Below are positions 1,716 through 55,425 of a DNA stretch of 64,000 bases, one piece after another. This stretch comes from Escherichia coli (GTDB lineage: Bacteria > Pseudomonadota > Gammaproteobacteria > Enterobacterales > Enterobacteriaceae). The notes below the pieces were generated by a model that ran no database searches, was not told where the DNA came from, and saw nothing but the letters and a program-made list of their open reading frames with translations. Location: the NCBI RefSeq assembly GCF_003991155.1, contig NZ_CP031294.1, one strand, 5' to 3'. How positions within the stretch are numbered: position 1 is the stretch's first letter; each line of letters opens with the position of its first letter. The translations under genes and the position numbers were made by a program.

Positions 1716-1764
1716 CCTGTCAGCGCCACAATGATAGTAAATTAGTACTTACTTATCCAGATAC

Positions 1765-2100: not shown

Positions 2101-2142
2101 CTCACATCCTTGTGAGACTGCCCCGGTCGGGGCAGTCGATAG

Positions 2143-7389: not shown

Positions 7390-7444
7390 TGGTTAAAATC
7401 CTTTTAAAAGAGAGGCCCATCCTGAGCCTCTGCTTAATTACTGA

Positions 7445-8191: not shown

Positions 8192-8265
8192 TGATGGAAA
8201 ACTCCTTTTTCCGTTAATTCTACGCATTCATTGCGCTAATAGTAAGTATATACTTACTAATTGAG

Positions 8266-8649: not shown

Positions 8650-8650
8650 A

Positions 8651-10806: not shown

Positions 10807-10850
10807 AACGCATTCTCTCTACATGGGCGGCTTTCGCCGCCCAATATTGA

Positions 10851-11771: not shown

Positions 11772-11844
11772 TTCTCGCTCCTACAAAAAGGGTGGGCGTA
11801 TAGCCCACCCTTTAACATAGATAATTACTTATCTACTTCACTGA

Positions 11845-12720: not shown

Positions 12721-12745
12721 CTATCAATTCCCTTTGATTTAGATG

Positions 12746-17144: not shown

Positions 17145-17256
17145 AGATCCCTCTAAAACACACAGAGCGCGTCCATGCGCTCTAAAACAACTTGTTTACT
17201 GCATCTGCTAACCAACTTGTTTTCTGGGGTGTTTAATTAGGTCTGGCATGTCTTAC

Positions 17257-26306: not shown

Positions 26307-26510
26307 GATTAATTCCTTATCGTAAATAACAAATTGTTTTCTTGTTGGTGTTAATTATCGTTGTACGAATAAGGCGTCAAAGTGGAAAGTTGCGGTAGCC
26401 GGACGGGAACAGGTGGGTTTGTCGGTTGCCTGGAGGTAAGAGGTTGGTGTTTTTAGCCTGCGGGAAACAGGATGGTCATTTAAGGCCACCAGCATTGGTG
26501 GCCTTAATCT

Positions 26511-26791: not shown

Positions 26792-27127
26792 TGAGCATAT
26801 CCTCACTGCGTAAACATGTTGTTTTCTTGTTGGTGTAATTATCGCAGTGTAGATAAGGCATAAAAGAAGTTAATACAGGCTGAATACACAAGAAAGGTTC
26901 TGGAAGTTGATAGCCAGGTTTCAAACTAACCTTCGGTTATTAAAAGTCATTTAAGACCACCAATGCTGGTGGCCTTAATAATTATCGCCCGATTACGCTA
27001 AGGATCTTTTCCTCAACTGATTTGTTGTTGCGACTAAACTGCCTTGCGTATCTGATGACAGAAGAGGCGTTTTGCTTTCTGACCATCTCGGCTCTTTCCT
27101 TCAGGCGTTTCTTGAAATCGCCCATAT

Positions 27128-28453: not shown

Positions 28454-28606
28454 CACAACTCCGTAAACAACTTGTTTTCTCAATGGCGTAAATAATACCA
28501 GTAAGAAAACGGCTACAAAGCATATTGATCAGGTGCATGAGCGATATGCAGGTTCTTCCCTGCGGCTATAGAGAAATTAAGCCAGCATTGCTGGCTTTGG
28601 TTAGGT

Positions 28607-28936: not shown

Positions 28937-30490
28937 AAAGCAATCCTTAAACAACATGTTTTCTTGATGGTGTTATTATCGCAATAACGCACAGGTGAAA
29001 AAGGATTTTATTCCGGTGAATGTGGTTTTGGCAGTGAGTTTTCAGGTTCAGTACCGAGTACACTTTTTACATTATTCTGATTTAGTGGCCGAAGGTGGCT
29101 GGTGGGCAGAATAATCCTCTCCCCGAAAACCTACTGAAATCGATTGTGACCCGTTGGCTGTCTGGCACAATTACGCTGTAACTGGGCATTCAGAGGGAAT
29201 CCAGCGGTAAGTAAGTTCGCCTGCACGTGAGCGCCTCTCTTCTTCCCGCACATTACAGGTGGGTAGCCGCAACTCTCCCTCTCGCTATACCGGTACGCCG
29301 CCGTTCCTGAACCGGCATCGAGCCTTCTCCCGAAATCCACACAGGCAACTCGACCGTTTCCCTGAAAACCTCCAGCCGTTCCCCGAAGGCAACCCAGCCG
29401 TTTCTGTAGCGGGATGCAACCTTTTCCCTGTATGGACCGAAGGCTGACCGTAGGGGTGTTACGGGGGATAAAATCAGGAGTTGAATAAATACGAAAAAGG
29501 AGGCGACACCCCTCCTTCTCTCCCCACTTATACATACCTGGCTTCTTCGCTATACATGTTGTGTTTTATTCGTGTTTTATCTGTCTCAACCTCTCTATGG
29601 ACGTTAATACTCACTCCTTCCAGAACGTTCTATACGGCGACTAATTCTGTTGGTGAATTGGGTGTGTTGTTCTCTCTGTCGGTGTATGTGGTTTCGTTCG
29701 TTTTGCGGTGGTTCTTCTATGGGGTGTTCTCGTCGTTTTGGTGATTGTTCTTCTCCGTGTATGGAGTAATGGCAGGTGGGCGATTCCTTTCGTTATTGTG
29801 TTTGAGTTGTTTGTCTGGAGTGCGTGAAGGGCTTTTGTAGTTATTCGTGTGTTGGGTAATGGCGTTTCCCGTGATTGTTCTGTTTCGTGTCTTTTGGGAT
29901 TGAGAGAAACCTTGCGGTTACAGGCTTCGTTGGGGTTTCAGTGATTCTGGTGTTTCTTCGCTGTTTGGGTAATGGCGTGTCGTGGGTATCGCGCGTATGG
30001 AAGTTTCGAATTGCCTGTGAAAGTTAGGTTGGTTGTCCGGTAGCCTGAGAAGAAGAGGTGGGTCTTTTCGGTAGCCTGCCATAAAGAGGTTGGTTGTTTT
30101 TGGTAATGGCATATGTGTTATTTAGTTGTTTTGTTATGCCTGAAAATAAGTTGTTTATATGGTTATGTAACGCAACGGGAACGATTTTGAGCGTGTGTTT
30201 TTGTTGGTAGTGTGTTGGGTCGTCTGTGGTGAAAATTGGACGCTGTGGCGCTGTCTGCTGCGTAGAATTACGGGTATAAGCAGTGATGTGTGAAAACGTC
30301 AATTTTTTAGACCAAATCGGGTGAAAGCGTTGATGTTTCGTTGATCTGTTATTCAGTTGTTTTCTTATTGGTATAAACAACTGTAACCTATTGATATTTA
30401 AGGATGTGATTCCAGGCATGGAAGGGGAGTAGTGGCGATCAACGGATTCTTATAGAAAAGAATCAAATTGTGACCGCCATTATCAATGTT

Positions 30491-31225
30491 TTACTTAGTT
30501 TTGTTTAGCAGAGAGAGAATTTCATCACTAATTTCACTCGCCTGTTTGATAGCCAATGCAGTTACCTCTTCTATGGTTGGTGACTGTTGATGCTCATATT
30601 TGGTTTCGGTTATGACAATGTGTTCTTCACCAGAATTTGCGCATAGTGCCGCATTGACGATAAGGTTTGAGTAAGAATTTAGCAGAGCACTGTTGATGAA
30701 CGCTTTCACGGTATTACTGTCTGCACCAAATACATCTTTTCTGACCGCTTCAGCCTCACAGCGAACCCCTGCAGCAACATCGTGAAGAACATGTATGGCC
30801 TTGGAGCTTGTTTGTTCACAGTACTCAATCATTATTGTCGAATTGTTCTGTTCAACAAACGATCTGATGCCTGACGATTTACCCATAGCATCGAAGGCAG
30901 CGTGACCCGCACTAGTAGAGATATCTTCATAGAGTTCTTCATCGCTATCTTTTTCTTCAGGTGTCGAGGTGTCTTCATCGTCGTAATAGATATTGCCTTT
31001 AATCAGTGTCTTGGACACTTGATATAAACAATAAGAAACGAGATTTAAGCATTGGATTTTAGCTGTATTGTCCTTTGTCGCCTCGCTATTCAGTTCTTTC
31101 GCTTCTTCAGTAAGGCTGTTGATAAGACTTTGTATTTTTTCCAACGCGTTAGGTGCACACTCCGCGTTGTCCATAAAGAATTTATAACCAGTCCCAGGGA
31201 TTTCTAAACTTTTCAACTTTTTCAT
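30491..31225 (-). CDS. hypothetical protein (AT-rich gene)
   Basis: 244-aa ORF with ATG start; AT-rich composition distinct from neighbours. Confidence 0.45.
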   Translation of the reverse strand: MKKLKSLEIPGTGYKFFMDNAECAPNALEKIQSLINSLTEEAKELNSEATKDNTAKIQCLNLVSYCLYQVSKTLIKGNIYYDDEDTSTPEEKDSDEELYEDISTSAGHAAFDAMGKSSGIRSFVEQNNSTIMIEYCEQTSSKAIHVLHDVAAGVRCEAEAVRKDVFGADSNTVKAFINSALLNSYSNLIVNAALCANSGEEHIVITETKYEHQQSPTIEEVTALAIKQASEISDEILSLLNKTK

Positions 31226-31270
31226 TTCTTTGATAATCCTAAAAACAAACTACCAATGCTTTAATATCTG

Positions 31271-31570
31271 TTACCAGTTCCAGCACTCAAGCCCTTCAAC
31301 GACCGGCGCACCACAATCAAAATGTACAGAGTCAAAGCCTACATCAAGTACTTTCTGAATGTTAGCAATCGCGCCTTCGGATATACCATATCGACGCAAG
31401 TCCTCTTTCCAGACATCATCCTGTAACCCAGCGTGGACAATACAACCGCCGTCAATTTGTGAAACCCAATCCAGCTCATTGCTTGCGATCATGAATCGGC
31501 GAGCATCTTCCTCTGATGTATGAGATGAGCTGATCAATGCCACCTGGTAGGCTTGGGTAATGTTCAACAT
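31271..31570 (-). CDS. hypothetical early protein
   Basis: 99 aa, GGAG RBS, motif-A leader at 31583-31617. Confidence 0.45.
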   Translation of the reverse strand: MLNITQAYQVALISSSHTSEEDARRFMIASNELDWVSQIDGGCIVHAGLQDDVWKEDLRRYGISEGAIANIQKVLDVGFDSVHFDCGAPVVEGLECWNW

Positions 31571-31685
31571 TTCAACAACTCCGAAACAATTTGTTTTCTT
31601 ATGTGGCTTATTATCTCAATCAACAAAAGGTAGAAAACAAATTGTTTTAGGGTTTGTTAAAGTCAGAAGGGGTTGTGTCTATATG

Positions 31686-31716
31686 AAAATGCCCAGCGTG
31701 TTGCCGGGCATTGCGA
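31686..31716 (-). terminator. metG rho-independent terminator (candidate)
   Basis: On minus strand gcccggcaacacgctgggca hairpin followed by tttt, just after metG stop. Confidence 0.5.
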
Positions 31717-31731
31717 ACAGAGGTTGTTTAA

Positions 31732-33765
31732 TTACTTAACCTGGTGGCCTGGTTTAGCACCAGCATCCGGGCTTAACAGGAAGATATCTTTCCCGCCGGG
31801 GCCAGCAGCCATCACCATGCCTTCGGAGATACCGAAGCGCATTTTACGCGGAGCCAGGTTAGCCACCATAATGGTGTGACGACCAATCAGTGCCTGTGGG
31901 TCTGGATAAGCAGAACGGATGCCTGAGAAGACATTACGCTTTTCACCACCGAGATCCAGTGTCAGACGCAGCAGTTTGTCAGAACCTTCGACAAACTCCG
32001 CGTTTTCAATCAGCGCCACACGCAGGTCAACTTTGGCGAAGTCGTCAAAGGTGATGGTTTCCTGAATCGGGTCGTCAGCCAGTGGGCCAGTTACCGGTGC
32101 AGCTGTGGCTTTCACTTCTTCTTTGGATGCTTCCACCAGTGCTTCCACCTGTTTCATATCGATACGGTTATACAATGCCTTGAACGGATTCACTTTATGG
32201 CCCAGCAGCGGTTGCTGGATACCATCCCAGGTCAGTTCTGTATTCAGGAATGCTTCTGCACGTTCAGTCAGTTTCGGCAGTACCGGTTTCAAGTACGTCA
32301 TCAGCACGCGGAACAGGTTAATGCCCATAGAGCAAATCGCCTGCAGATCGGCATCGCGTCCTTCCTGCTTCGCCACCACCCACGGAGCCTGTTCATCGAC
32401 ATATCGGTTAGCCAGGTCAGCCAATGCCATGATTTCACGGATAGCTTTACCAAATTCGCGGCTTTCCCATGCTTCGCCAATCACTTCAGCGGCATCAGTA
32501 AAGGTTTTGTACAGTTGCGGGTCAGCCAGTTCGCTTGCCAGCACGCCGTCAAAACGCTTGTTGATAAAGCCTGCATTACGGGAGGCCAGGTTAACCACTT
32601 TGTTCACGATATCGGCATTCACGCGCTGAACGAAATCCTCCAGGTTGAGATCGATATCATCAATGCGCGAAGAGAGTTTCGCAGTGTAGTAGTAACGCAG
32701 GCTGTCGGCGTCAAAATGATTCAGCCAGGTGCTGGCTTTAATAAAGGTGCCGCGAGACTTGGACATCTTCGCGCCGTTCACCGTCACATAGCCGTGAACA
32801 AACAGGTTGGTCGGCTTGCGGAAGTTGCTGCCTTCCAGCATGGCAGGCCAGAACAGGCTGTGGAAGTAAACAATATCTTTACCGATGAAGTGGTACAGCT
32901 CGGCTGTGGAGTCTTTCTTCCAGTATTCATCGAAGCTGGTGGTATCGCCGCGCTTGTCGCACAGATTCTTGAAGGAACCCATGTAGCCAATCGGCGCGTC
33001 CAGCCAGACGTAGAAATATTTGCCCGGCGCGTTCGGAATTTCAAAACCGAAGTAAGGCGCATCGCGGGAGATATCCCACTGTTGCAGGCCGGATTCAAAC
33101 CACTCCTGCATTTTGTTCGCCACCTGCTCCTGCAACGCACCGCTGCGGGTCCATGCCTGCAACATTTCGCTGAAAGAGGGCAGATCAAAGAAGAAGTGTT
33201 CGGAATCACGCATTACCGGGGTAGCGCCAGAAACCACCGATTTCGGCTCGATCAATTCAGTCGGGCTATATGTTGCGCCGCAGACTTCACAGTTATCGCC
33301 GTATTGATCTGGCGCTTTACATTTCGGGCAGGTGCCTTTCACAAAACGATCCGGCAGGAACATGCCTTTTTCCGGGTCGTACAACTGAGAGATAGTGCGG
33401 TTTTTAATAAAACCGTTCTCTTTCAGGCGAGTATAGATAAGCTCAGACAGCTGGCGGTTCTCTTCGCTGTGCGTCGAGTGATAGTTGTCATAGCTGATGT
33501 TAAAGCCTGCGAAATCAGTCTGGTGTTCCTGACTCATTTCGCCAATCATCTGCTCCGGTGTGATACCAAGCTGCTGTGCTTTCAGCATGATCGGCGTACC
33601 GTGGGCATCGTCGGCACAGATGAAATTAACCTCGTGGCCGCGCATTCGCTGGTAACGAACCCAGACATCAGCCTGGATGTGCTCCAGCATATGGCCGAGG
33701 TGGATTGAGCCGTTAGCGTACGGCAGCGCGCACGTCACCAGAATTTTCTTCGCGACTTGGGTCAT
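31732..33765 (-). CDS. metG: methionyl-tRNA synthetase
   Basis: 677-aa product [29 protein letters not shown]... recalled as essentially E. coli MetG (HIGH motif, KMSKS, C-terminal tRNA-binding domain); start at ATG 33763-33765, ORF-track upstream extension rejected. Confidence 0.97.
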
Positions 33766-33922
33766 AGTAGGCATTACTTCTTTGTAGTGAAAAGGGGCTT
33801 GATAGTAACAAAATGGCCTTATGTCTGCCATGTGATAACAGCATTTCTCATAAATGATTAAATGTCGTAGCTGGAGTACACTACAAGGCGACAATTGCGC
33901 AAATTAAAATAAAGGAGACGGG

Positions 33923-35023
33923 ATGAGCGAGTCCAAATCGCCGGATGCCCTGAGAGCAATGGTAGCCGGTACGCTGGCTAATTTTCAGCACCCAACCCTG
34001 AAACACAACCTGACTACGCTTAAAGCGTTACACCATGTTGCGTTGATGGATGACACACTGCATGTCGAACTAATCATGCCTTTCGTGTGGAATAAGCCTT
34101 TTGAAGACCTGAAAGAGCAATGTAGTGGTGATCTGCTCCGTATCACTGGCGCAAAGGCTATTGACTGGAAGCTGTCGTACAACATTGCCACGCTTAAGCG
34201 CGTCAAAAACCAACCAGGCATTAATGGCGTTAAGAACATTATCGCCGTCAGCTCAGGCAAGGGCGGCGTGGGTAAATCCTCCACGGCGGTAAACCTGGCA
34301 CTGGCGTTGGCTGCTGAAGGTGCGAAAGTTGGTATTTTGGATGCCGATATCTATGGTCCATCAATTCCAACCATGCTGGGCGCGGAAAACCAACGTCCAA
34401 CCTCACCTGACGGTACTCACATGGCACCTATCATGTCTCATGGCCTGGCAACCAACTCTATTGGTTATCTGGTCACCGACGACAATGCAATGGTGTGGCG
34501 TGGACCGATGGCCAGCAAGGCGCTGATGCAGATGTTGCAGGAAACTCTATGGCCTGATCTGGACTATCTCGTTCTCGATATGCCGCCGGGCACTGGTGAT
34601 ATTCAGTTGACGCTGGCGCAGAACATTCCTGTAACTGGTGCGGTTGTGGTAACTACGCCGCAAGACATCGCGCTGATCGATGCGAAGAAAGGCATTGTGA
34701 TGTTCGAAAAAGTCGAAGTGCCGGTACTGGGTATCGTCGAAAACATGAGTGTGCATATTTGCAGTAACTGCGGTCATCACGAGCCAATTTTTGGCACCGG
34801 TGGCGCACAGAAACTGGCCGAGAAATACAACACGCAGTTGTTAGGCCAAATGCCACTTCATATCTCTCTTCGTGAAGATCTGGATAACGGAACACCAACC
34901 GTTATTAGTCGTCCAGATAGCGAATTTACGGCTATTTATCGTGACCTCGCAGATCGCGTTGCCGCCCAAATGTATTGGCAAGGTGAAGTAATACCTGGCG
35001 AAATCGCATTCCGCGCAGTGTGA
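33923..35023 (+). CDS. apbC: Fe-S cluster carrier ATPase ApbC/Mrp
   Basis: 366 aa; P-loop SSGKGGVGKSSTAVNLALALA; CxxC motif ICSNCGHHEP; divergent from metG as in Escherichia chromosome. Confidence 0.95.
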   Translation: MSESKSPDALRAMVAGTLANFQHPTLKHNLTTLKALHHVALMDDTLHVELIMPFVWNKPFEDLKEQCSGDLLRITGAKAIDWKLSYNIATLKRVKNQPGINGVKNIIAVSSGKGGVGKSSTAVNLALALAAEGAKVGILDADIYGPSIPTMLGAENQRPTSPDGTHMAPIMSHGLATNSIGYLVTDDNAMVWRGPMASKALMQMLQETLWPDLDYLVLDMPPGTGDIQLTLAQNIPVTGAVVVTTPQDIALIDAKKGIVMFEKVEVPVLGIVENMSVHICSNCGHHEPIFGTGGAQKLAEKYNTQLLGQMPLHISLREDLDNGTPTVISRPDSEFTAIYRDLADRVAAQMYWQGEVIPGEIAFRAV

Positions 35024-35059
35024 TAAAAGGCGGTGCATTGCACCGCCTAATCAGTTCTC

Positions 35060-35449
35060 CTACATCACGGGACAATCATCAAACTCGCCACTTCTTGCGT
35101 CGTTGATAATGTGAGTGATCACACCAAACACGGCATTGCTGCCCGTGCATCCATCGTCATCCTTTGGCAATGCTTCCTTCTTACCGGTTCTTAAATCCTC
35201 CAGATGCTGACGTGGGTACTTCCGGTATCTTTTTACGCGATATTCCCCATCCAGAGCGCATACAAGCAGAGAACCATCAACCGGGGTAAGTGAGGAATCG
35301 ACCACCAGCAATGCACCCTGTAATATTCCCTCACGATGATGACTATCAGCTGCCCTCATGAAGTAGGTCGCTGAAGGATGTCTAATTATCTGCTGATCAA
35401 GAGAAATACGGCTCTCAGCATAATCCGCCGCAGGAGAAGGGAAGCCCAT
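35060..35449 (-). CDS. UmuD/ImpA-like S24 peptidase (translesion synthesis accessory), orphan
   Basis: FPSPAADYAE...HPSATYFMRA...VDGEYRVKRY...AVFGVITHII aligns with UmuD; no umuC-like gene follows. Confidence 0.7.
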   Translation of the reverse strand: MGFPSPAADYAESRISLDQQIIRHPSATYFMRAADSHHREGILQGALLVVDSSLTPVDGSLLVCALDGEYRVKRYRKYPRQHLEDLRTGKKEALPKDDDGCTGSNAVFGVITHIINDARSGEFDDCPVM

Positions 35450-35467
35450 AGCGTTTTCACCTCAGAG

Positions 35468-35487
35468 TACTGTTTATCCATACAGTA
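35468..35487. promoter_or_regulatory. LexA (SOS) box
   Basis: tactgtttatccatacagta = CTGT-N8-ACAG palindrome, 19 bp upstream of umuD-like start. Confidence 0.7.
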
Positions 35488-35547
35488 TACATTAAAGATG
35501 CTTGAAGTGTGCAATAGCGCGATGCTTTGCGCTCGTCTGGTGGCGCG

Positions 35548-35799
35548 TTATTTTTTGGCTATATCTTCTTTCTGATATACCGGATCGTTTCCTTTTGGCA
35601 GCAGGAGGCTTAACTGCCGGTAGTGCCGTAGCCGTTCCATGAAATAGGTGCGCAGGTTCTCAGGTTGCTCACGGGCTACCTGTTCCGCTATGACGGGTAT
35701 GTTCAATCGCTCTTTGTAGGCAACCCCCCTGGCAGCCAGGTCAACGTTAACTTTATTCCTTTCTTCCTGGCTTTTGGCTGCTATGTTCCAGTTGCTCAT
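35548..35799 (-). CDS. small hypothetical protein upstream of umuD-like gene
   Basis: 83-aa ORF; no confident family assignment. Confidence 0.35.
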
Positions 35800-36151
35800 G
35801 TTTAAGGCTCACATTTCCAGATGGTATTCTGAACACCCGTACCAGGCGCAAGATGAGGGTTAGCGTTCGCGCTATGCAGATATACAGCTTTAGACTTTCC
35901 GTATTGCTGACAGGCTTTATCTGCGTTTTTTGGCAGGCTATCCAAGCCAATACCAGCCATCGAACTGGATGCTAACCTTTTCACCGTCATTGTATTGCAC
36001 CATCGCACACCCAGACATAGCTAAAATCGCACCGACAATACCGCTTTTCCAAAAAGCTCTAATTAGGTCATTCGTTACCTAATGTCCGAACTGCTAAAGC
36101 ATCCAAGTTGCTGTAGAATCACATCCAATTACTTAAACCTGAAATAAGTGG

Positions 36152-37710
36152 ATGAAAATGACAAGTATTCAACAACGTGCAGAGCTTCATCGCCAGATCT
36201 GGCAAATTGCTAACGATGTCAGGGGTTCAGTCGATGGATGGGATTTTAAGCAGTACGTTTTGGGCGCGCTTTTTTACCGTTTTATCAGCGAAAATTTTTC
36301 CAGTTATATTGAAGCCGGTGATGACAGTATCTGTTATGCGAAACTGGATGACAGCGTAATTACTGATGACATTAAAGACGATGCCATCAAAACTAAAGGC
36401 TACTTCATCTACCCCAGTCAGCTTTTCTGCAACGTAGCTGCGAAAGCAAATACTAATGACAGACTGAATGCAGATTTAAACAGCATCTTCGTTGCTATCG
36501 AAAGTTCTGCTTACGGTTATCCTTCAGAAGCTGACATCAAAGGTTTGTTTGCTGATTTCGATACCACCAGTAACCGCCTGGGTAACACCGTTAAAGATAA
36601 AAATGCCCGCTTGGCTGCGGTTCTGAAAGGGGTTGAAGGGCTAAAACTTGGTGACTTCCATGAACATCAGATTGACCTGTTCGGTGACGCCTATGAGTTC
36701 CTGATTTCTAACTATGCGGCGAATGCCGGTAAGTCCGGCGGCGAGTTCTTTACACCGCAGCACGTCTCTAAGCTGATTGCACAACTGGCTATGCACGGGC
36801 AGACCCACGTTAACAAAATCTACGACCCGGCAGCAGGCTCCGGTTCGCTGTTGTTGCAGGCGAAAAAACAGTTTGATGACCATATCATCGAAGAAGGTTT
36901 TTTTGGTCAGGAAATCAACCATACGACCTATAACCTGGCGCGTATGAACATGTTTTTGCACAACATCAACTACGACAAGTTTGATATCAAGCTGGGTAAT
37001 ACACTGACTGAGCCGCACTTCAGAGATGAAAAACCGTTTGATGCCATCGTTTCTAACCCGCCGTATTCGGTGAAATGGATTGGCAGCGATGACCCGACGC
37101 TGATTAACGATGAACGTTTTGCCCCGGCTGGCGTTCTGGCCCCCAAATCCAAAGCTGACTTTGCGTTTGTATTACATGCGCTGAACTATCTTTCGGCCAA
37201 AGGTCGCGCTGCGATTGTCTGCTTCCCAGGCATTTTTTACCGTGGCGGCGCGGAGCAGAAAATCCGTCAGTATCTGGTCGACAATAACTATGTCGAAACC
37301 GTGATTTCACTGGCACCGAATCTGTTCTTTGGCACCACTATTGCCGTCAATATTCTGGTGCTGTCTAAACATAAAACGGATACCAAAGTTCAGTTTATTG
37401 ATGCCAGCGAACTGTTCAAAAAAGAGACTAACAACAACATTCTGACCGATGCTCATATCGAACAGATTATGCAGGTATTTGCCAGCAAGGAAGATGTTGC
37501 TCATCTGGCGAAATCTGTTGCGTTTGAGACTGTTGTCGCGAATGACTATAACCTGTCGGTGAGCAGCTATGTGGAAGCGAAAGATACTCGCGAAATTATC
37601 GATATCGCTGAGCTGAATGCTGAGCTGAAAACCACGGTCAGCAAAATCGACCAGTTGCGTAAAGATATTGATGCGATTGTTGCTGAGATTGAAGGTAGCG
37701 AGGTACAGGC

Positions 37711-37714
<4 letters not shown>
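36152..37714 (+). CDS. hsdM: Type I restriction-modification methyltransferase subunit (Type IC, EcoR124 family)
   Basis: 520 aa; N-terminus [26 protein letters not shown] recalled as EcoR124-family HsdM; AdoMet motif [10 protein letters not shown]; NPPY catalytic motif. Confidence 0.95.
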
Positions 37715-38970
<1,256 letters not shown>

Positions 38971-39091
38971 TTGACCATTGCTACCGACCGGATCACCTTA
39001 ACATCCGGTCTATATAGAGACTATTTTTTACACGCCGGAAGTCGCCCTTAAAGCCCTTCCGGCCCTTGCCAGACGGCACAAAGGATGCGCT

Positions 39092-42000
39092 ATGACTCAT
39101 CAGACACACACCATTGCTGAATCCAATAACTTTATCGTTCTTGATAAGTACATCAAAGCCGAGCAAACAGGCGACAGCTACCAGAGCGAATCGGACCTGG
39201 AACGTGAACTGATTCAGGATCTGCGGAATCAGGGCTATGAATTTATTTCCGTAAAATCTCAGTCGGCGATGCTGGCCAACGTTCGGGAACAGCTTCAGAG
39301 CCTCAATGGTGTGATGTTTAATGACAGCGAGTGGCGGCGCTTCACGGAGCAGTATCTGGACAACCCCAGCGATGGTATTCTGGATAAAACCCGTAAAATC
39401 CATATCGACTATATCTGCGACTTTATTTTTGACGACGGGCGACTTGAGAACATCTATTTGATAGATAAAAAGAATCTCATGCGCAATAAGGTGCAGATTA
39501 TCCAGCAGTTTGAACAGACGGGTTCTCATGCTAACCGTTATGACGTCACGATCCTGGTTAATGGTTTACCGCTGGTGCAAATCGAACTAAAAAAACGCGG
39601 GGTGGCGATTCGTGAGGCTTTCAACCAGATACATCGTTACAGTAAAGAGAGTTTTAACAGCGAAAATTCCCTGTTTAAGTATCTGCAACTGTTTGTCATT
39701 TCTAACGGCACCGATACCCGTTATTTTGCCAACACGACAAAGCGCGATAAAAACAGTTTTGACTTCACCATGAATTGGGCGAAATCAGACAACACGCTGA
39801 TTAAAGACCTCAAAGACTTTACCGCTACCTTTTTCCAGAAACATACTCTGCTGAATGTTCTGGTGAACTACAGCGTTTTTGACAGTAGTCAGACGCTACT
39901 GGTGATGCGACCGTACCAGATTGCCGCCACCGAGCGCATTCTGTGGAAAATTAAGAGTTCCTTTACAGCGAAGAACTGGTCAAAACCGGAAAGCGGTGGG
40001 TATATCTGGCATACTACCGGTTCTGGTAAAACCCTCACCAGCTTTAAAGCCGCGCGTCTGGCAACAGAGCTGGACTTTATTGATAAAGTCTTCTTTGTGG
40101 TCGACAGGAAAGACCTCGATTACCAGACCATGAAGGAATATCAGCGTTTTTCGCCAGACAGCGTCAACGGCTCGGAAAATACCGCAGGCCTTAAACGAAA
40201 TCTGGATAAGGACGATAACAAAATTATCGTCACTACTATTCAGAAACTCAATAACCTGATGAAAGCAGAAAGCGACCTGCCTGTATATAATCAGCAAGTG
40301 GTGTTTATATTTGATGAATGCCACCGCAGCCAGTTTGGAGAAGCGCAGAAAAACCTGAAGAAGAAATTCAAACGCTATTATCAGTTTGGTTTTACCGGCA
40401 CCCCTATTTTCCCGGAAAACGCTTTAGGCTCAGAAACGACCGCCAGCGTATTTGGTCGTGAATTGCATTCGTATGTAATTACCGATGCGATTCGTGATGA
40501 AAAAGTGCTCAAATTCAAGGTGGACTACAACGATGTGCGGCCACAGTTTAAATCTTTAGAGACAGAAACCGACGAGAAAAAACTGAGTGCGGCTGAAAAT
40601 CAGCAGGCATTTCTTCATCCCATGCGTATACAGGAAATTACGCAATATATTCTGAATAACTTCCGCCAGAAGACCCACCGTACTTTCCCAGGTTCCAAAG
40701 GCTTTAATGCCATGCTGGCAGTGAGTAGCGTGGATGCCGCGAAAGCCTATTACGCGACGTTTAAACGGTTACAAGAGGAAGCAGCTAATAAATCGGCTAC
40801 CTATAAACCGCTGCGTGTTGCAACAATCTTCTCCTTTGCCGCCAATGAAGAACAAAATGCCATTGGTGAAATTTCCGATGAAACTTTTGATACCAGCGCA
40901 ATGGACAGCAGTGCTAAAGAGTTTCTTGACGCTGCAATTCGTGAGTATAACAGCTATTTTAAAACTAACTTCAGCACCGACAGTAACGGTTTTCAGAACT
41001 ACTATCGTGATTTAGCCCAACGGGTTAAAAATCAGGATATCGATCTGTTAATTGTCGTTGGGATGTTTTTAACCGGCTTCGACGCTCCAACATTGAACAC
41101 GCTATTCGTCGATAAAAACTTGCGTTTTCACGGCCTGATGCAGGCATTCTCCCGTACCAACCGCATTTATGACGCTACTAAAACCTTCGGTAACATCGTC
41201 ACTTTTCGGGATCTGGAACGCTCAACCATTGATGCCATAACGCTGTTTGGTGATAAAAATACTAAAAATGTGGTGTTAGAAAAGAGTTATGCTGAGTATA
41301 TGGAAGGCTTTACAGATGCTGCCACTGGTGAAGCTAAACGCGGCTTTATGGCAGTAGTTTCAGAACTGGAACAACGGTTCCCTGACCCTGCCAGTATTGA
41401 AAGTGAAAAACAGAAGAAAGACTTCGTAAAACTGTTTGGTGAATACCTGCGTGCCGAGAACATCCTGCAAAACTATGATGAATTTGCCACGCTGAAAGCC
41501 CTGCAACAAATCGATCTTAGCGATCCTGTTGCGGTAGAAAAATTCAAAGCAGAACATTATGTGGATGATGAAAAGTTCGCTGAATTGCAAACAATTCGTC
41601 TCCCTGCTGAACGCAAGATTCAGGATTATCGTTCTGCCTATAACGATATTCGCGACTGGCAGCGCCGTGAGAAAGAAGCTGAGAAAAAAGAGAAATCAAC
41701 CACTGACTGGGATGACGTAGTTTTTGAGGTCGATTTGCTGAAGTCTCAGGAAATAAACCTGGATTATATCCTTGGACTGATTTTCGAACACAACAGACAA
41801 AATAAAGGCAAGGGCGAAATGATCGAAGAGGTCAAACGCTTAATTCGTTCAAGCCTGGGGAACCGGGCGAAAGAGGGCCTGGTGGTCGATTTTATTCAGC
41901 AAACGAACCTGGATGATTTACCAGACAAAGCCAGTATCATTGAGGCATTCTTTACGTTTGCTCAACGCGAACAGCAACGTGAAGCAGAAGCATTGATAAA

Positions 42001-42208
42001 AGAAGAAAATCTCAATGAAGAGGCGGCGAAACGCTATATTCGCACGTCTTTAAAACGCGAATACGCCACCGAAAATGGCACAGAATTAAACGAGACATTA
42101 CCAAAACTTAGTCCGTTAAACCCGCAATATAAAACGAAAAAACAGACCGTTTTCCAGAAAATCGTCACGTTTATTGAAAAGTTCAAAGGAGTAGGTGGGC
42201 AGATATAG
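39092..42208 (+). CDS. hsdR: Type I R-M restriction endonuclease/translocase subunit
   Basis: 1038 aa, same length as EcoR124I HsdR; SF2 helicase motifs (GSGKT, FDECH), N-terminal nuclease region. Confidence 0.95.
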
Positions 42209-42266
42209 TGTATTAATCTGAACCAGATCTGGCAGACATCTGTGCAAATTGCAGATAGCTGTCAGA

Positions 42267-42677
42267 TCAAACCATCGTAGGGATGTTTGTATCCACTTTG
42301 AACTCAGGTACACCAACGAACTCTTTAACCTTCATCTGGTAGCCGGTTCTGTCAGTTTTGATGACTTCCTGTTTGCCCTCTATAAACTGCTCACGCCACT
42401 CGTCGCGACGGGAAGCTGGCATGATCAGCAAAACGTTAGTCATATCCGTGACCTTCCTCCAGTACTCGGCCCAAATATTCTGTTTCACCCATTCCAGATC
42501 GACTTTATCCAGCCAAGCTCGATTCAAACGTGAGCGTTCTTCATCTGGTCGATGGTTTAGTCTCAGCAGGCGATTAATCATGTTGTGGCGTTCGTCGCCA
42601 TAAACGAAGTCGTGTACCTGATACATGAAGGCGATCTCTTTCTCGCACTCGGCCACGATTTCGTGGATGACATTCAT
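42267..42677 (-). CDS. hypothetical protein convergent with hsdR
   Basis: 136-aa ORF with AGGA RBS; no family recognised. Confidence 0.4.
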   Translation of the reverse strand: MNVIHEIVAECEKEIAFMYQVHDFVYGDERHNMINRLLRLNHRPDEERSRLNRAWLDKVDLEWVKQNIWAEYWRKVTDMTNVLLIMPASRRDEWREQFIEGKQEVIKTDRTGYQMKVKEFVGVPEFKVDTNIPTMV

Positions 42678-42681
42678 TTCC

Positions 42682-42712
42682 TGCCGATAGTCGATAGTCG
42701 ATAGTCGATAGC
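42682..42712. repeat. 7-bp tandem repeat (gatagtc/ctatcga x4) immediately upstream of RBS of 42267..42677
   Basis: ccgatagtcgatagtcgatagtcgatagc read directly. Confidence 0.85.
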
Positions 42713-42860
42713 AGCGTTTGAGTTGGGATCGTCGATGATGGAAAGGGCTGTATTCATAATAGCACCATTAAGAAGTGATTTGTTTAATGGTGCTATTATT
42801 TCAAAAATGAAAAGGTACTAAATAGAAATAAACAGGCAATCCTTCAAATAAAGGCATTGG

Positions 42861-43532
42861 CTAATCATACTTGGAGGTATTTATCACCAGAATTTTGTTT
42901 GTATAAATCTTCTTAATATCCCATGTGACATTACCGGAATACCATTGACCGTTATATACTTGGTTTCCAGTTGCACCTGTCATTGTTACATAGACAGGTC
43001 TGTCGTAATCGGTTCGTCTATAGTTATATACTCCAACCATAGCAGGCATTACCGCACATGGATACCCCATATCTATTGTAAATTGAGGGTCAGAAATAGT
43101 GATAAGTTTCGCATCAAGGGGCATCATCTCACCGTGATACACCATTGCGCCTGCGCTGTTATACATGGCAATGCCATAGCCAGAATGTGGTAACACCATA
43201 TCAGAAAAAGCATAAACTGTTATTGTTCCGGGGCTACCATTTACCTGATGCAATCTGAGAGCATTGTATCCGTTACTATGTTCATGAATAAACATCATGT
43301 TCGCCTTATTACTGCTTTTTATGAAAAAAAAACATGATTTGTTTGATGGGATTGATGTTTGAAAAACAGAACCTTTAGATGTAGACATTGTCCCTTTATT
43401 AATCAGATTTTGCGGAGTAAATTCAGGACTCATCCACAAACTTCCATCTGATTGAGTAATTGACATCCCGAACATAATTATCCCCAGTATGTGTATATGT
43501 AAGAACCAAGCCCCGTATATAAATTTGACCAA
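42861..43532 (-). CDS. Tyr/Asn/Gly-rich hypothetical protein (TTG start; possibly 3' part of a frameshifted gene)
   Basis: 223-aa ORF with TTG start, AT-rich; overlaps upstream 93-aa ORF in a different frame. Confidence 0.3.
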   Translation of the reverse strand: MVKFIYGAWFLHIHILGIIMFGMSITQSDGSLWMSPEFTPQNLINKGTMSTSKGSVFQTSIPSNKSCFFFIKSSNKANMMFIHEHSNGYNALRLHQVNGSPGTITVYAFSDMVLPHSGYGIAMYNSAGAMVYHGEMMPLDAKLITISDPQFTIDMGYPCAVMPAMVGVYNYRRTDYDRPVYVTMTGATGNQVYNGQWYSGNVTWDIKKIYTNKILVINTSKYD

Positions 43533-43759
43533 CTAACCGTATTTCCATTAATAGTAACATTTGGAACAGGTAAATTGATGTAGTTGTCGTTGTTAAGAGG
43601 CATTAATGACCACACGGCATGTAGTGATTTACCCGGTGGCGGATTAGAGTACGTCTTAGAGCCTGATGACGCCGTAAATCGATCAAGAAAAAAAATAGGT
43701 GTAAGGAAGCCAGTAACGTTAATTCCTTTATTGTTGTAAATCCCTGTACCGTATGCCAT
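43478..43759 (-). CDS. Tyr/Asn-rich hypothetical protein (possibly 5' part of same gene)
   Basis: 93 aa, ATG start with AAGGGTG RBS; similar composition to downstream ORF. Confidence 0.35.
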   Translation of the reverse strand: MAYGTGIYNNKGINVTGFLTPIFFLDRFTASSGSKTYSNPPPGKSLHAVWSLMPLNNDNYINLPVPNVTINGNTVSWSNLYTGLGSYIYTYWG

Positions 43760-43774
43760 TTTTCACCCTTGTTT

Positions 43775-43798
43775 TTATCAACACAATATGGCCGATCA
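43775..43798. terminator. hairpin (atatggccg-atcatg-cggccatat) at boundary of cargo block and phage early genes
   Basis: Perfect 9-bp inverted repeat; no clear T-tract, so terminator function uncertain. Confidence 0.4.
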
Positions 43799-43813
43799 TG
43801 CGGCCATATCAGA

Positions 43814-44383
43814 TCAATTAGAGCTTTGAAAGACTTTGTGTGGTTGTGTTGCGAGGTTATGTCGATGGCTTAACTCACGCATCATGTCTTCAAGGCGACT
43901 CTTTGTGTCGTCGAGTTGGTCGGCCATTGCTCCCAAAAGCTGACGAACGGCCATAGGATCATCGCTGTTTAGTGATGGCATTTTATAACCCGCCTGAGAA
44001 GACATAAGATTGAACGCAGACATCAACATCGTTAGAGAGGATTTAAGCCCAGCAATTTCACGATCTTTGCTGGCAATAATCGTCTCACTCTTGTTAGTGT
44101 CATCAGTTCGTTGAGTCTCGCTCACCATATCCAAAGTCGCCTGCAACTTATCAGCGCGCTCTTTTTCAGCAAGATAATGAACACCGAAATGATGTGCTAA
44201 AGCTACAACCTGAGTTGGCTCTTCAAAGGTGGACTCAAAATTAAGTGCTGTAACCACTCTCTCAAATATGGAAACGTCTTCTATTCCTCGAAGAATGGCT
44301 AACATTTTGACCAGTTCATTAGCATCCATTTCTTCGAATAAGGCGTTTTGTTCATCAGCTATCGCTTTGCATTTCTTGCACAT
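43814..44383 (-). CDS. hypothetical early protein
   Basis: 189 aa; conserved RBS context AGGAAAAACACATG; motif-A leader at 44401-44435. Confidence 0.5.
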   Translation of the reverse strand: MCKKCKAIADEQNALFEEMDANELVKMLAILRGIEDVSIFERVVTALNFESTFEEPTQVVALAHHFGVHYLAEKERADKLQATLDMVSETQRTDDTNKSETIIASKDREIAGLKSSLTMLMSAFNLMSSQAGYKMPSLNSDDPMAVRQLLGAMADQLDDTKSRLEDMMRELSHRHNLATQPHKVFQSSN

Positions 44384-44680
44384 GTGTTTTTCCTAATTCT
44401 TAAACAAGTTGTTTTCTTATTGGCTTTATTGTGATGTGGCATAAAAGGGGAGCAAGCTAAACGTAAAGGTGCAAACTCTCTATTTCGGTCAACGAAACAC
44501 AAGGGCCATTTGGCCCTTGTTATTAACACGTTGCTTTACGGACTAGCGGATAAGCGAAGTAGATCGCCAGACCAATGAGGACGCCATCAGAAATGACAGA
44601 CATCATCTTTCCCGTAAAATCCACCAACACCGCCATCACCAGAAGAGCAATGACGATCACAAGCCGGAATCTCTCAAGCA

Positions 44681-45106
44681 TTAGAGATAAGCATCCAGTG
44701 ACAACTGAAGCGCCTGGGCGATCTTTTTCAGTGCCTGCTCTTCTTGTTCACCAATGCCATCCTGATCGGCAATATCAAGGCACAGACACAGAACATCGAC
44801 CGCCTCTGGAGTACCCGCAATATCAGACAGCTCACGAATAGCCTGTGCATTAGCAGAACGAGGGGACGCTTCGTAACGAGCACGGATATTGGCGCTCATT
44901 TGGGCAATTTCACCAGCAAACGGAGAAAACGCAGGCAGAGCTGCAATTGTCTTCTCAAGAATGGCAATTTCTTTTGCGTCACATGTGCCGTCGGCATAGG
45001 AGATCATGTACGCGCCCCACACGGTGGCCTCAACCGCATCACGGTTCTCCATTTTTTTGACTTCGATAACTGCTTTACGAGTTTTCTTTTTGAAGAAACC
45101 TAACAT
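44681..45106 (-). CDS. hypothetical early protein (possible TerB-like fold)
   Basis: 141 aa; conserved RBS context; motif-A leader at 45128-45160; TerB assignment is weak pattern recognition only. Confidence 0.4.
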   Translation of the reverse strand: MLGFFKKKTRKAVIEVKKMENRDAVEATVWGAYMISYADGTCDAKEIAILEKTIAALPAFSPFAGEIAQMSANIRARYEASPRSANAQAIRELSDIAGTPEAVDVLCLCLDIADQDGIGEQEEQALKKIAQALQLSLDAYL

Positions 45107-45199
45107 GTGTTTTCCTTTTGTTATTTGTCAAAACAAGTTGTTTTATAGTTTCATAAATTGCTTACGCAAAGATGGTCAATGCATATGCACTAACAGCCG

Positions 45200-45388
45200 T
45201 CAGAAATAACCAAGTACCGAACCGACTGGAAAAACAAAAATCCCAACTACACGAGCCAAGGTCATGCCAGCCTGAAACTGGAGATCGCCAGAGCAAACAA
45301 GTTTTATAATGTTCGATACCCAACCGGCGGCCATGAGGGCAAGAATTGCCAGCCAAATTTTTCCAAAGTGATTTGAAAACCAGTTCAT
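45200..45388 (-). CDS. small membrane protein (two predicted TM helices)
   Basis: 62 aa, hydrophobic stretches IWLAILALMAAGWV and VVGIFVFPVGSVLGYF. Confidence 0.4.
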   Translation of the reverse strand: MNWFSNHFGKIWLAILALMAAGWVSNIIKLVCSGDLQFQAGMTLARVVGIFVFPVGSVLGYF

Positions 45389-45636
45389 ACAACCGCCTTA
45401 GTCACAGCATGATCCTGAGTAACCGGATGAACTTGAGGTATCGCATCCACCGTCATCCCATCCAGAGTGACAGGACGCTCTACTGGAGTGGTGGTAATTG
45501 TCGTCGACGGAGGTGTGGTGATGGATGAACCCGGCATCAAAAGGCTCTGGCCGGCTGGAACGGCTACCGTCGCCAGTGAAACTATAATGAGAACGTAGGC
45601 CATTGGTTTCAGCCTCTTTCTTTGAAAATTTTCCAT
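45385..45636 (-). CDS. small secreted protein candidate
   Basis: Signal-like MAYVLIIVSLATVAVPAG; 4-bp overlap with downstream gene; fully embedded in another frame of ORF 45398..45892. Confidence 0.3.
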   Translation of the reverse strand: MENFQRKRLKPMAYVLIIVSLATVAVPAGQSLLMPGSSITTPPSTTITTTPVERPVTLDGMTVDAIPQVHPVTQDHAVTKAVV

Positions 45637-45892
45637 TCGAACTGTCCTTGTTGTTTTTCTCCTTCACTAAAGGCCGTGTACTTTTCGCTTCGCGTGAAGA
45701 ACCAGAGGCAACAATCGCCCCCACGTTCGCAACAACTGACGCTTGATTATCTAAACGTTCATTCAGCAACCGAACGGTAGTCTCTAGTTCATCAAGACGT
45801 GACATAACACGACCGCTAAACAATTCGGCCAAAATTTGACGTAAAGAACGAGGACGTTTAGTTGCAGAAGTGAAATAGGTTTGACGTGCCAT
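45398..45892 (-). CDS. hypothetical protein (N-terminal part plausible, C-terminal low complexity)
   Basis: 164-aa ORF; C-terminal third Ser/Gly/His-rich; overlaps 45385..45636. Confidence 0.3.
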   Translation of the reverse strand: MARQTYFTSATKRPRSLRQILAELFSGRVMSRLDELETTVRLLNERLDNQASVVANVGAIVASGSSREAKSTRPLVKEKNNKDSSNGKFSKKEAETNGLRSHYSFTGDGSRSSRPEPFDAGFIHHHTSVDDNYHHSSRASCHSGWDDGGCDTSSSSGYSGSCCD

Positions 45893-46037
45893 GTGGACTC
45901 CATCCAGTGTCAGAAAGAGTTGCGGCTGGCGATTGCCAGCCGCCTTTCTCGTTCCATCCTGGAACTGTGTCTTACCGACACATTGTCATCCTGACGCTGA
46001 TAAGATACATGATTTAAAATGATAGGTAAACACTTAC

Positions 46038-46682
46038 TTACCACTTGTTATAAACAAAACCAATATCTTTCTTGTGAGGCATATCTGCTGCTGAAAAAGC
46101 TGCGATCTTCGCGAGTCGATCACATATTTCATTTTCACGATGCCCGGCGTGACCTTTAACCCACTTCCAGCGAACATTATGTCGACTTGCGGCCTCATCC
46201 AGACGTTTCCACAGATCAACATTCTTTACCGGTTTTTTATCAGAAGTCATCCATCCATTACGTTTCCACCATTTCATCCACTGTGTCATGCCGTTTTTCA
46301 GATACTGGCTATCAGAGTACAAAATAACGTTGCATGGATATTTCAAACGCTCCAGCCCGATAAGTGCGCCCATCATCTCCATGCGGTTATTGGTGGTGCT
46401 ATGAAAACCATCTGAGAACTCGCGTTCCTCACCACGATACTGGAGAACGATACCGTAACCGCCCGGGCCACCCGGATTTTTAAGGCAAGAGCCATCACTA
46501 AAGATTTTCACGGTTTTGAGCTGGGGATTGAACTCTACGACAGGCGTTGTGGGATTGGTGCGGGGAGAATTTTTGTTTTTGGCTTTTTTGCGAGTTTTTG
46601 CTTGCGATCGGGCTGGTGTCTTCGTCGTCATATAAACTCCTGAATCAAGCGCCGCGCCGATTTTTTCCTCGCGCGTGCGCAC
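46038..46682 (-). CDS. rnhA: ribonuclease H (RNase HI family)
   Basis: C-terminal region [12 protein letters not shown]...[16 protein letters not shown]...[26 protein letters not shown]...[16 protein letters not shown] matches RNase HI; basic N-terminal extension. Confidence 0.85.
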
Positions 46683-47214
46683 ACGCGTGCGTGTTAATAA
46701 TTATTAAAATAAACAAATTACTTCCCAGAACAGGTTTTTTATAAACCTGAACTGAACGAACGAAGTGAGTGAAGTTCACCTCGAACGAAGTGAGAGGTTG
46801 TCTTTTCAGGTAATACTCTCCCAGGGAGGTGAGTATAAAATTCCTCACCAACCTGGTCGTTTCATAACCTGAAAAGCTATGGTCTAAGTCTACTGCCAGC
46901 TTAGACTTGGGAAGTTATGGATGACAGCACCCCAGAACCGAGATCTTCCCACACTTTATGAAGGGGAGTACTGGATTCAACCTCTCGAAACACCCCAGAC
47001 TCGACAATCATAAAGTGACCCTTGTCTCTGCTCACTTTGGTTCCCCCTTCCCCGACACCTAAACGGCACCGGTTCTACGCTGGTAGTGAGCTTTTTTAAA
47101 CCTGACGCCAGTGACGCTTACCCCCACCCATCAGGTCGAGTCTCCAGTCTACGACTGGAAACTATCAGATCTTAGCACTTACAATTCACTTTATGAATAG
47201 TTTGTACTTATCTA

Positions 47215-55319: not shown

Positions 55320-55425
55320 GTGTTTTTCCTTTTTCTTTTTTGGTGCGTTTAAACAGGTTGTTATCTTATGTGTTTAAACAAGGCTTACAAATCAAAGAGA
55401 AGGTGGGGATATCCCCCACCATATG

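Follow-up and report, generated by a model that had tools for sequence, protein, structure and literature searches.

Composite accessory zone with metG-apbC, humD-hot and type IC hsdMSR genes in an SSU5-supergroup phage-plasmid of Escherichia coli

Introduction

Phage-plasmids of the SSU5 type form a well described group (PMC7969092; PMC3999498; bioRxiv 10.1101/2025.09.12.675607). Their plastic accessory regions, the carriage of metG by phage-plasmids and the presence of restriction-modification systems in E. coli clades of the group (bioRxiv 10.1101/2025.09.12.675607) are already known, and gene flow between phage-plasmids and plasmids is reported in the available part of PMC10879196. Here, a 64,000-nt stretch of Escherichia coli DNA (contig NZ_CP031294.1 of assembly GCF_003991155.1, called the window; all coordinates refer to it) was analysed. 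The window belongs to an SSU5-supergroup phage-plasmid, and its positions 31650-43775 are an accessory-gene zone set among short, individually promoted early genes, between the structural and the nucleotide-metabolism genes. An earlier note, made from the sequence of the window, had described this zone as one 12-kb block between two early promoters and had left the choice between cargo captured by a phage or phage-plasmid and a chimeric contig.

Among the described relatives, Cyrano (OV696614) is the pLF82 element of strain LF82. It is present at ~5.5 copies per cell, and virion formation in LF82 cultures was concluded from transmission electron microscopy, the virome read coverage alone being inconclusive (PMC9928086). 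PhiR41_1 (PV340561) was deposited as a phage with a K-12 host. Both share with the window the same backbone (98% identity for Cyrano, 94-95% for PhiR41_1), the metG-apbC-humD genes, the flanking promoter modules and two small membrane-protein genes. Salmonella phage SSU5 (JQ965645) has homologous promoter-operator modules, the neighbouring backbone genes and a DUF4942 gene at the same relative position, but is without metG, apbC, humD, hot, hsd and the two membrane-protein genes.

The pWPMR2-type elements of Shigella sonnei and E. coli are described, in the accessible portion of the literature, as likewise carrying a full-length extra metG on an SSU5-supergroup phage-plasmid beside the chromosomal copy; they are likened here by this description of metG carriage only. 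For S. sonnei, Tam et al. 2024 associated phage-plasmid metG with survival of antimicrobials and with a subpopulation prone to the acquisition of cephalosporin resistance (as relayed in the available text of PMC12452169). The available text of PMC12452169 and of bioRxiv 10.1101/2025.09.12.675607 does not mention apbC, its divergence or a mosaic metG, and neither metG nor restriction genes are named in the announcement of the pECOH89 genome. A literature search for SSU5 together with methionyl-tRNA synthetase (MetRS) found nothing.

Results

Assignment of the window to the SSU5 supergroup

Tail, tape-measure, capsid, portal and terminase genes are found upstream of the zone on the same molecule. 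Downstream lie rnhA, dam, an exonuclease gene, a dihydrofolate reductase gene, thyA, nrdAB and SbcCD-like genes. The structural and DNA-metabolism genes are colinear with those of SSU5 and its relatives, the nucleotide homology occurring in islands. Cyrano (98%), CMS-2020a, PhiR41_1 (94-95%), Klebsiella SSU5-like phages and SSU5 itself were the matches of the window in the phage database. The phage genes on one molecule, taken with these matches, identify an SSU5-supergroup phage-plasmid of the pSLy3/pECOH89/pLF82 type.

The plasmid state of the element is indicated by proxy, through a twin. NZ_OW849379.1 is a complete circular E. coli plasmid of 110,667 bp, typed as IncFIB and non-mobilizable. 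The full 64 kb of the window are colinear with its positions 46687-110667 at >99.9% identity, with ~8 mismatches and 2 gaps, and window 29000-47000 matches it at 99.9% over the entire length. The rep gene lies outside the window, and ParB-like genes are located within it. At least 80% of window 29000-47000 is carried in one piece by 39 PLSDB plasmids. Membership of the pSLy3-like clade J is more likely than membership of the pWPMR2-like clade K, because clade K is reported without defence systems (bioRxiv 10.1101/2025.09.12.675607) and the window element has type I restriction-modification.

Modular composition of the accessory zone

Module borders were taken from pairwise BLAST comparisons with relatives. 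Judged by these borders, the 12-kb block is a composite of at least four modules of differing origin and age and not a single insertion. The modules are metG-apbC, humD-hot, hsdMSR and the two small membrane-protein genes. The earlier description of one block between two special promoters has to give way to a mosaic of separately acquired modules.

Alignment to relatives, which the earlier note had proposed, found metG-apbC-humD in place in Cyrano and PhiR41_1. Homology to these two elements stops at 35497/35501, just past humD and its LexA box, and restarts at 42270. Between the equivalent points they hold Ea22/Eaa-type genes and an intact 1686-bp DUF4942 gene, where the window has hot, hsdMSR and a truncated DUF4942 gene. 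Homology to SSU5 is limited to 31576-31652, 44366-44469, 42273-42815 (the 5′ end of DUF4942 with its promoter) and part of 43814-44383, and the SSU5 slot contains unrelated small genes, including RelA/SpoT-like and ydfZ-like ones. The same slot of Klebsiella phage vB_KpnS_p4727 (6920-15219 of the compared segment L088) holds the HEC-05 defence candidate (625 aa) and a diverged type IC hsdMSR (81-83%), and ends with a shorter DUF4942 stump that retains a strong promoter module. The differing cargo in SSU5, in Cyrano/PhiR41_1 and in the Klebsiella relative thus marks the slot as a recurrent defence and cargo site across genera.

Scans of open reading frames (ORFs) and protein families revealed no integrase, transposase or insertion sequence (IS) in or adjoining the block; every ORF of 60 aa or more in 31.6-43.8 kb belonged to another family or was a small unknown. 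A repeat search over 31.4-44.6 kb gave no terminal inverted repeats or target duplication, and all module borders were free of direct and of inverted repeats. The sole repeat linking both sides was the backbone promoter module. The earlier remark that integrase, transposase, IS ends and target duplications are lacking at the boundaries was borne out by these scans. No Rfam family reached its gathering score in 25-47 kb, and the window is free of tRNA and tmRNA genes by ARAGORN. The joins at the module borders resemble products of illegitimate or short-homology recombination rather than of a mobile element.

Anatomy and prevalence of the metG-apbC pair

The features of this module are as follows.

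31732-33765, minus strand: metG, 677 aa; full-length methionine-tRNA ligase, an extra copy (NF001100, 1020 bits against a cut-off of 587)
33766-33922: divergent metG/apbC promoter region, 157 bp here against 131 bp in E. coli
33923-35023, plus strand: apbC (mrp), 366 aa; iron-sulfur cluster carrier ATPase (NF008669, 759 bits against a cut-off of 348)
31653-31730, minus strand: phage-plasmid-specific spacer of 78 bp that separates the metG stop from the backbone promoter; last position of SSU5 homology, 31652

The phage-plasmid metG is intact, with its catalytic motifs HLGH, KMSKS and two CxxC, and supplements the chromosomal gene. The E. coli chromosome is homologous over 31731-35019; the limits of this homology are the metG stop codon and a point 4 bp short of the apbC stop, and the divergent arrangement of the chromosome is kept. 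Only ~50 bp of the intergenic region, adjoining metG, resemble the chromosome. The spacer downstream of metG contains a hairpin at 31688-31712 with a 10-bp stem, followed by UUUUCAUAU (U-run); its fold has -20.1 kcal/mol and z = -3.8. The hairpin has the appearance of a terminator, although one missed by the consensus scan for such signals, and would shield the early promoter from transcripts that run on out of metG.

Among 5,426 complete E. coli genomes, metG-apbC is found on plasmids at 225 places and the backbone segment at 231, and the chromosomal copy of the pair is present in 5,425 of the genomes. The pair is therefore near-fixed in the E. coli SSU5-like lineage, whose hosts are merodiploid for it. 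In Cyrano and PhiR41_1, metG-apbC-humD has the same location. In LF82 lysogeny, the apbC homologue CYRAN_99 is transcribed 9-fold above the prophage background, and metG is not on the list of genes transcribed above background (PMC9928086).

Divergence of metG and apbC

The two genes were compared with their E. coli counterparts. For metG, identity is 93.9% at the nucleotide and 99.1% at the amino acid level, with 0.32 synonymous substitutions per site (Ks) and a ratio of non-synonymous to synonymous substitution (Ka/Ks) of 0.015. For apbC the values are 82.4%, 94%, 1.44 and 0.023, respectively. Between the window and PhiR41_1, metG has 112 synonymous and 3 non-synonymous differences, and apbC has 25 synonymous and none that is non-synonymous. 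These low non-synonymous counts between phage-plasmid copies show strong purifying selection on both genes while on the phage-plasmid. Since both genes are so constrained, apbC is probably not a passive hitch-hiker.

Identity of metG to Escherichia species is 92.6-94.1%, within the spread of these species among themselves (92.4-94.7%). Identity of apbC to Escherichia is 82-83%, against 89-93% between Escherichia species, and both apbC and the intergenic region fall outside the genus. Thus, of the pair that had been called Escherichia-type, both genes are intact and metG is Escherichia-like, but apbC is not. The intergenic region is 99-100% identical among phage-plasmids against 62-73% in comparison with chromosomes, and identity shifts sharply near the metG start, at ~33700.

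The phage-plasmid alleles were also compared among themselves. Identity is 94.3% for metG, as far apart as these alleles are from chromosomal ones, 97.7% for apbC and 99.4% for the intergenic region. Triplet site patterns are star-like at metG (45/62/55) and spatially clustered (max-chi-square p < 0.001), and tree-like at apbC (8/13/173). A 311-bp patch of metG (32480-32790) has 95-97.4% identity to the E. coli chromosomes listed. In this patch, 300-bp windows reach 97-99% against one E. coli chromosome, and the 3′ third of the gene has 88-91%. A donor scan with ApbC over one genome per GTDB species found none, the best having 95% amino acid and 83% nucleotide identity; the best matches were about equal for Escherichia, Citrobacter and Salmonella. 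These patterns would best be read as an old capture from a lineage outside the sample, after which metG underwent gene conversion by chromosomal alleles of its hosts.

The humD-hot module

Next to apbC lie the following features.

35060-35449, minus strand: humD (NF051876, 219.8 bits against a cut-off of 120, residues 1-129 of 129; phrog_811)
35468-35487: LexA (SOS) box, TACTGTTTATCCATACAGTA, identified by inspection of the sequence; overlap with a -10-like hexamer ahead of humD
35548-35799, minus strand: hot, homologue of the DNA polymerase III theta subunit, P1/D6 type (NF008207, phrog_1105)

The orphan umuD/impA-like gene of the earlier note proved to be a P1-type humD, encoding a UmuD′ homologue without an umuC partner. 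It is full length and scores above the curated equivalog cut-off of NF051876. The gene is ~87% identical at the nucleotide level to P1 humD and identical to the Cyrano gene. A promoter-like match is located upstream of it, at 35513-35484, and Cyrano has a similar LexA box (~9468-9490 of the compared segment L002). The predicted box suggests SOS control of this phage-plasmid UmuD′-like gene. The neighbouring hot had been missed in the earlier gene list, which was incomplete in this respect.

Bacteriophage P1 and D6 have humD and hot in the same relative order and orientation, with 87-89% nucleotide identity. Window 35546-36061, which comprises hot and its flank, is 89% identical to P1/D6-like plasmids with the order doc-phd-humD-hot. 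P1 has lxr between the two genes, whereas the window is without lxr and has the pair in an SSU5-type backbone beside metG-apbC. The hot gene is not present in Cyrano and PhiR41_1. By family membership, humD and hot would be P1-type modulators of SOS mutagenesis and of polymerase III.

The type IC hsdMSR cassette

The restriction-modification module comprises the features below.

36053-42208, plus strand: type IC (EcoR124-family) cassette (TIGR00497, TIGR00348; PADLOC type I models)
36152-37714, plus strand: hsdM, HsdM of 520 aa (TIGR00497, 651 bits against a cut-off of 243)
37711-38970, plus strand: hsdS, with type IC conserved regions and TAEL repeats
38266-38301, plus strand: three 12-bp repeats (TAEL x3) in the central conserved region of hsdS
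39092-42208, plus strand: hsdR, 1038 of 1038 residues aligned with EcoR124I HsdR (2W00), 2274 bits

The full type IC system named in the earlier note is confirmed by the full-length alignment with EcoR124I HsdR together with the TAEL repeats of HsdS. All three subunits are homologous to those of EcoR124, and the gene order is hsdM-hsdS-hsdR. The window cassette shares with EcoR124I/EcoR124II of plasmid R124 (PDB 2W00, 7BST) the entire HsdR, the conserved regions of HsdS and the TAEL repeat, but it is carried on a phage-plasmid and has other target-recognition domains. The recognition sequence is therefore expected to differ from that of EcoR124.

EcoR124I and EcoR124II specificities are distinguished by a polymorphism of two against three TAEL repeats. 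The window has three such repeats and the 99.9%-identical NZ_OW849379.1 has two (11712-12959 of the compared segment L001). This difference thus predicts a one-base change in the recognition-site spacer between near-clonal plasmids. By analogy, a 12-bp hsdS repeat gained or lost could switch the specificity of the cassette.

The P1-like phage vB_EcoM-673R5 has a cassette with 96-97% identity to that of the window (36053-42208); the target-recognition parts of hsdS differ between the two, and the homology stops precisely at the hsdR stop codon. In that phage (5989-12133 of the compared segment L004), the cassette is located between phd/doc and pmgS, about where P1/D6-like elements have humD-hot. 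The annotation of hsdM and hsdR in vB_EcoM-673R5 is fragmented, which is suggestive of frameshifts or of errors in sequencing. The 5′ end of hsdM is found in many hundreds of E. coli plasmids, and the whole search gave 1,021 matching records, including conjugative plasmids. A recent single acquisition of hsd unique to this plasmid was considered and rejected, as 66 plasmids share the humD-hot-hsdM junction and the slot is occupied by a diverged type IC system in the Klebsiella relative. From family membership, hsdMSR would restrict incoming DNA and may help to retain the plasmid.

Putative promoter-operator modules of the backbone

The conserved leader motif reported earlier at 31583-31617 and 44401-44435 is real. 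It marks ~10 promoters, not two special boundaries. When AACAANTTGTTTTCTTAT was searched with up to 3 mismatches, 12 matches were obtained in the window against 0.38 expected by chance. On the transcribed strand, a GATAAT -10 hexamer is followed after ~8 nt by AAGAAAAC and the dyad AACAAnTTGTT, and the start codon lies 10-23 nt past the dyad. The consensus of the module across ~10 early genes is GCGATAATnAnACCAnnAAGAAAACAAnnTGTTTAA. A position-weight matrix built from nine sites found 10 strong sites in the window, ~9 in 20 kb of SSU5 (span 794-13614 of segment L003), 6 in 19 kb of a Klebsiella SSU5-like phage (span 3036-15985 of segment L088) and 0 in P1-like and chromosomal controls.

Strong sites, all minus strand: 17208-17248, 26325-26365, 26810-26850, 28463-28503, 28947-28987, 30348-30388, 31582-31622, 44400-44440, 45129-45169, 55349-55389
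31582-31649, minus strand: left-flank module before the early gene 31271-31570; GATAAT -10 hexamer, then dyad AAACAAaTTGTTT; matrix score 41.7
44400-44440, minus strand: right-flank module before gene 43814-44383 (phrog_5508); matrix score 42.6; SSU5 homology over 44366-44469

The left flank has the dyad twice, with an inverted copy at 31629-31646, 44 bp upstream of the first, an arrangement shared with SSU5 and Cyrano; the module is conserved in SSU5 (6942-7019 of segment L003) at 87% identity. The block itself has a single, decayed copy, ahead of the DUF4942 stump. A generic scan for sigma-70 promoters and terminators gave no excess over shuffled sequences and missed the conserved module; such a scan is of little use here because the -35 of the module is weak. 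A literature search for a described SSU5 operator turned up nothing relevant. The module is probably a promoter of the backbone whose operator covers the transcription start, and hence a mark of a repressor-controlled early-gene regulon. The cargo genes are without the motif and presumably use their own signals. The flanking motifs were also considered as attachment or recombination sites of the block, a role that was rejected as the motif occurs at ~10 promoters, equally where there is no cargo.

Two further observations were made on these modules. Ahead of the gene that lies upstream of the terminase gene, the module is accompanied by an inverted partner. There is also a second slot, small and variable, between promoter modules at 30492-31271 (compared with 3403-3420 of the PhiR41_1 segment L089). 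The 244-aa coiled-coil gene 30491-31225 (phrog_20845) is missing from PhiR41_1; in LF82, expression of the Cyrano homologue CYRAN_102 exceeds background 6-fold.

DUF4942 remnant and two small membrane-protein genes

The right part of the zone has two features.

42267-42815, minus strand: DUF4942/methylase-like 5′ remnant with decayed promoter module; ORF 42267-42677 (phrog_16000, residues 23-158), module 42767-42807
42861-43759, minus strand: two small AT-rich genes annotated as membrane proteins, 204-223 aa and 93 aa (phrog_425, phrog_557)

What had been grouped as AT-rich unknown genes holds for the two small genes at 42861-43759, but ORF 42267-42677 is the 5′ stump of DUF4942. SSU5_095 is a homologue of the intact gene, and the promoter module of the stump scores only 19.7. 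The backbone DUF4942 gene was truncated where the hsd block arrived, as judged by the homology to Cyrano that restarts at 42270. The two membrane-protein genes are ~79% identical at the nucleotide level to those of JenP1/JenP2/BRET phages, have the Cyrano counterparts CYRAN_89 and CYRAN_88, and are not found in SSU5. Searches of Pfam, NCBIfam and PADLOC gave no match for these two genes or for the DUF4942 remnant. A perfect 16-nt inverted repeat, ATAATAGCACCATTAA / TTAATGGTGCTATTAT, was seen at 42756-42799 in the decayed promoter of the stump, where SSU5 has a standard operator.

Discussion

It is highly probable that the block is an accessory zone of an SSU5-supergroup phage-plasmid, built stepwise by capture of metG-apbC, acquisition of humD-hot and a later replacement by hsdMSR. 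An assembly chimera, with chromosomal and plasmid contigs misjoined into a phage contig, is excluded for the lineage and has a probability close to nil. Chromosomal-type genes among phage genes, without mobility genes at the borders, give it a surface appearance only. The same junctions are found in an independently assembled circular plasmid with >99.9% identity over 64 kb, 39 plasmids contain 80% or more of the 18-kb query as an unbroken piece, ~225 plasmids in complete E. coli genomes carry metG-apbC, and so do the phage records Cyrano and PhiR41_1. The phage-plasmid pair differs by 6-18% from every E. coli chromosomal copy and is therefore not mis-joined host DNA. Of the two alternatives of the earlier note, the capture of host and plasmid-type cargo by a phage-plasmid was thus the right one, as the twin plasmid and the relatives indicate. 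Insertion of a single 12-kb island in one step, by a transposon, an integrative element or an integron-like cassette array, would account for the contiguity of the block and for its composition, which differs from parts of the backbone (GC content 0.50-0.52 over metG-apbC, 0.36-0.46 elsewhere). It is nevertheless very improbable, as the repeat and family searches above found none of the marks of such an element, Cyrano and PhiR41_1 have metG-apbC-humD without hot-hsd, P1-like phages have the hsd cassette alone, SSU5 is without any of these modules yet has an intact DUF4942 gene, and the modules range from 82% to 97% identity to their nearest relatives. Little more can be said for a recent capture of metG-apbC from the present E. 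coli host chromosome, through aberrant recombination or transduction. The gene order and divergent arrangement are those of the chromosome and metG groups with Escherichia at 93-94%, but the best E. coli chromosomal identity over the segment is ~90%, apbC and the intergenic region lie outside Escherichia, and phage-plasmid copies differ among themselves by up to 4-6%. The genes are also present in nearly all E. coli members of the group, and this distribution, common to metG-apbC-humD, is of the kind that the earlier note had itself named as speaking against a recent event.

A closer contest is that over the discordance of metG and apbC. Differing substitution rates after one capture from an unsampled Escherichia-related lineage, with no gene conversion, would agree with the fact that metG is more conserved than apbC in all enterobacterial comparisons, and with the finding that no metG patch among the matches listed is 100% identical to typical E. 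coli chromosomes, the best having 97-98.7%. This explanation is unlikely, since the phage-plasmid metG alleles are as distant from one another as from chromosomes while apbC and the intergenic region are 97.7-99.4% alike, the star-like site patterns of metG are clustered where those of apbC are tree-like, and identity changes sharply at the metG start. Old capture followed by gene conversion of metG is preferred here. Several points weigh against it, or against parts of the wider scheme. The metG-apbC donor was not found, no species representative having an ApbC above 95% amino acid identity. Recombination at metG is read from three phage-plasmid alleles and a handful of chromosomes, and rate heterogeneity could explain part of the discordance. 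The 225 and 231 places are two counts set side by side and not a per-plasmid match. The antimicrobial-survival phenotype and the identity of the reported metG allele are second-hand, through the available text of PMC12452169. The fuller proposition joins an ancient capture from an unsampled enterobacterium, in which metG has been repeatedly overwritten and apbC has stayed private, to a conserved GCGATAATnAnACCAnnAAGAAAACAAnnTGTTTAA repressor regulon that exempts the cargo; it is put forward tentatively, with doubt slightly prevailing. If true, the phage-plasmid would keep a copy of an essential gene in genetic exchange with the chromosome.

From the anatomy, homologies, breakpoints, prevalence and selection signatures observed above, we infer the order of events that follows, along with the recombination mechanism and the phenotypes that it would entail. 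An ancestor of the E. coli/Shigella lineage would have captured the divergent chromosomal metG-apbC pair long ago, trimmed exactly to both stop codons. Later, metG would have been patched by homologous recombination with Escherichia chromosomal alleles, with apbC and the intergenic region fitting no sampled genus. Both genes would have been retained by purifying selection, and would supply the host with MetRS and ApbC from a second, multicopy source. Beside metG-apbC, a humD-hot pair of P1/D6 type would have settled, its humD preceded by a LexA box. In a sub-lineage, an EcoR124-family hsdMSR, from a cassette that circulates in P1-like phage-plasmids and many E. coli plasmids, would have replaced ~5.9 kb of other cargo, probably together with hot, and DUF4942 would have been cut in the process. 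Expression of the cargo genes would be autonomous and not subject to the early-gene operator.

The mosaic metG beside a private apbC, the promoter-operator regulon, and the exchange of a type IC cassette between P1-like and SSU5-like phage-plasmids at a recurrent slot may be new. The lineage is a common one, occurring in ~4% of complete E. coli genomes, and is neither a chimera nor a new kind of element. Related elements carry blaCTX-M-15, and, according to the available part of the literature, an extra metG is linked to antimicrobial survival in epidemic Shigella, which gives the lineage clinical relevance. At the slot, type IC restriction-modification, HEC-05 and Ea22-type genes are swapped between SSU5-like and P1-like phage-plasmids. 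These observations thus provide leads on the trade of cargo among phage-plasmids and on the reasons for which a second MetRS may be retained.

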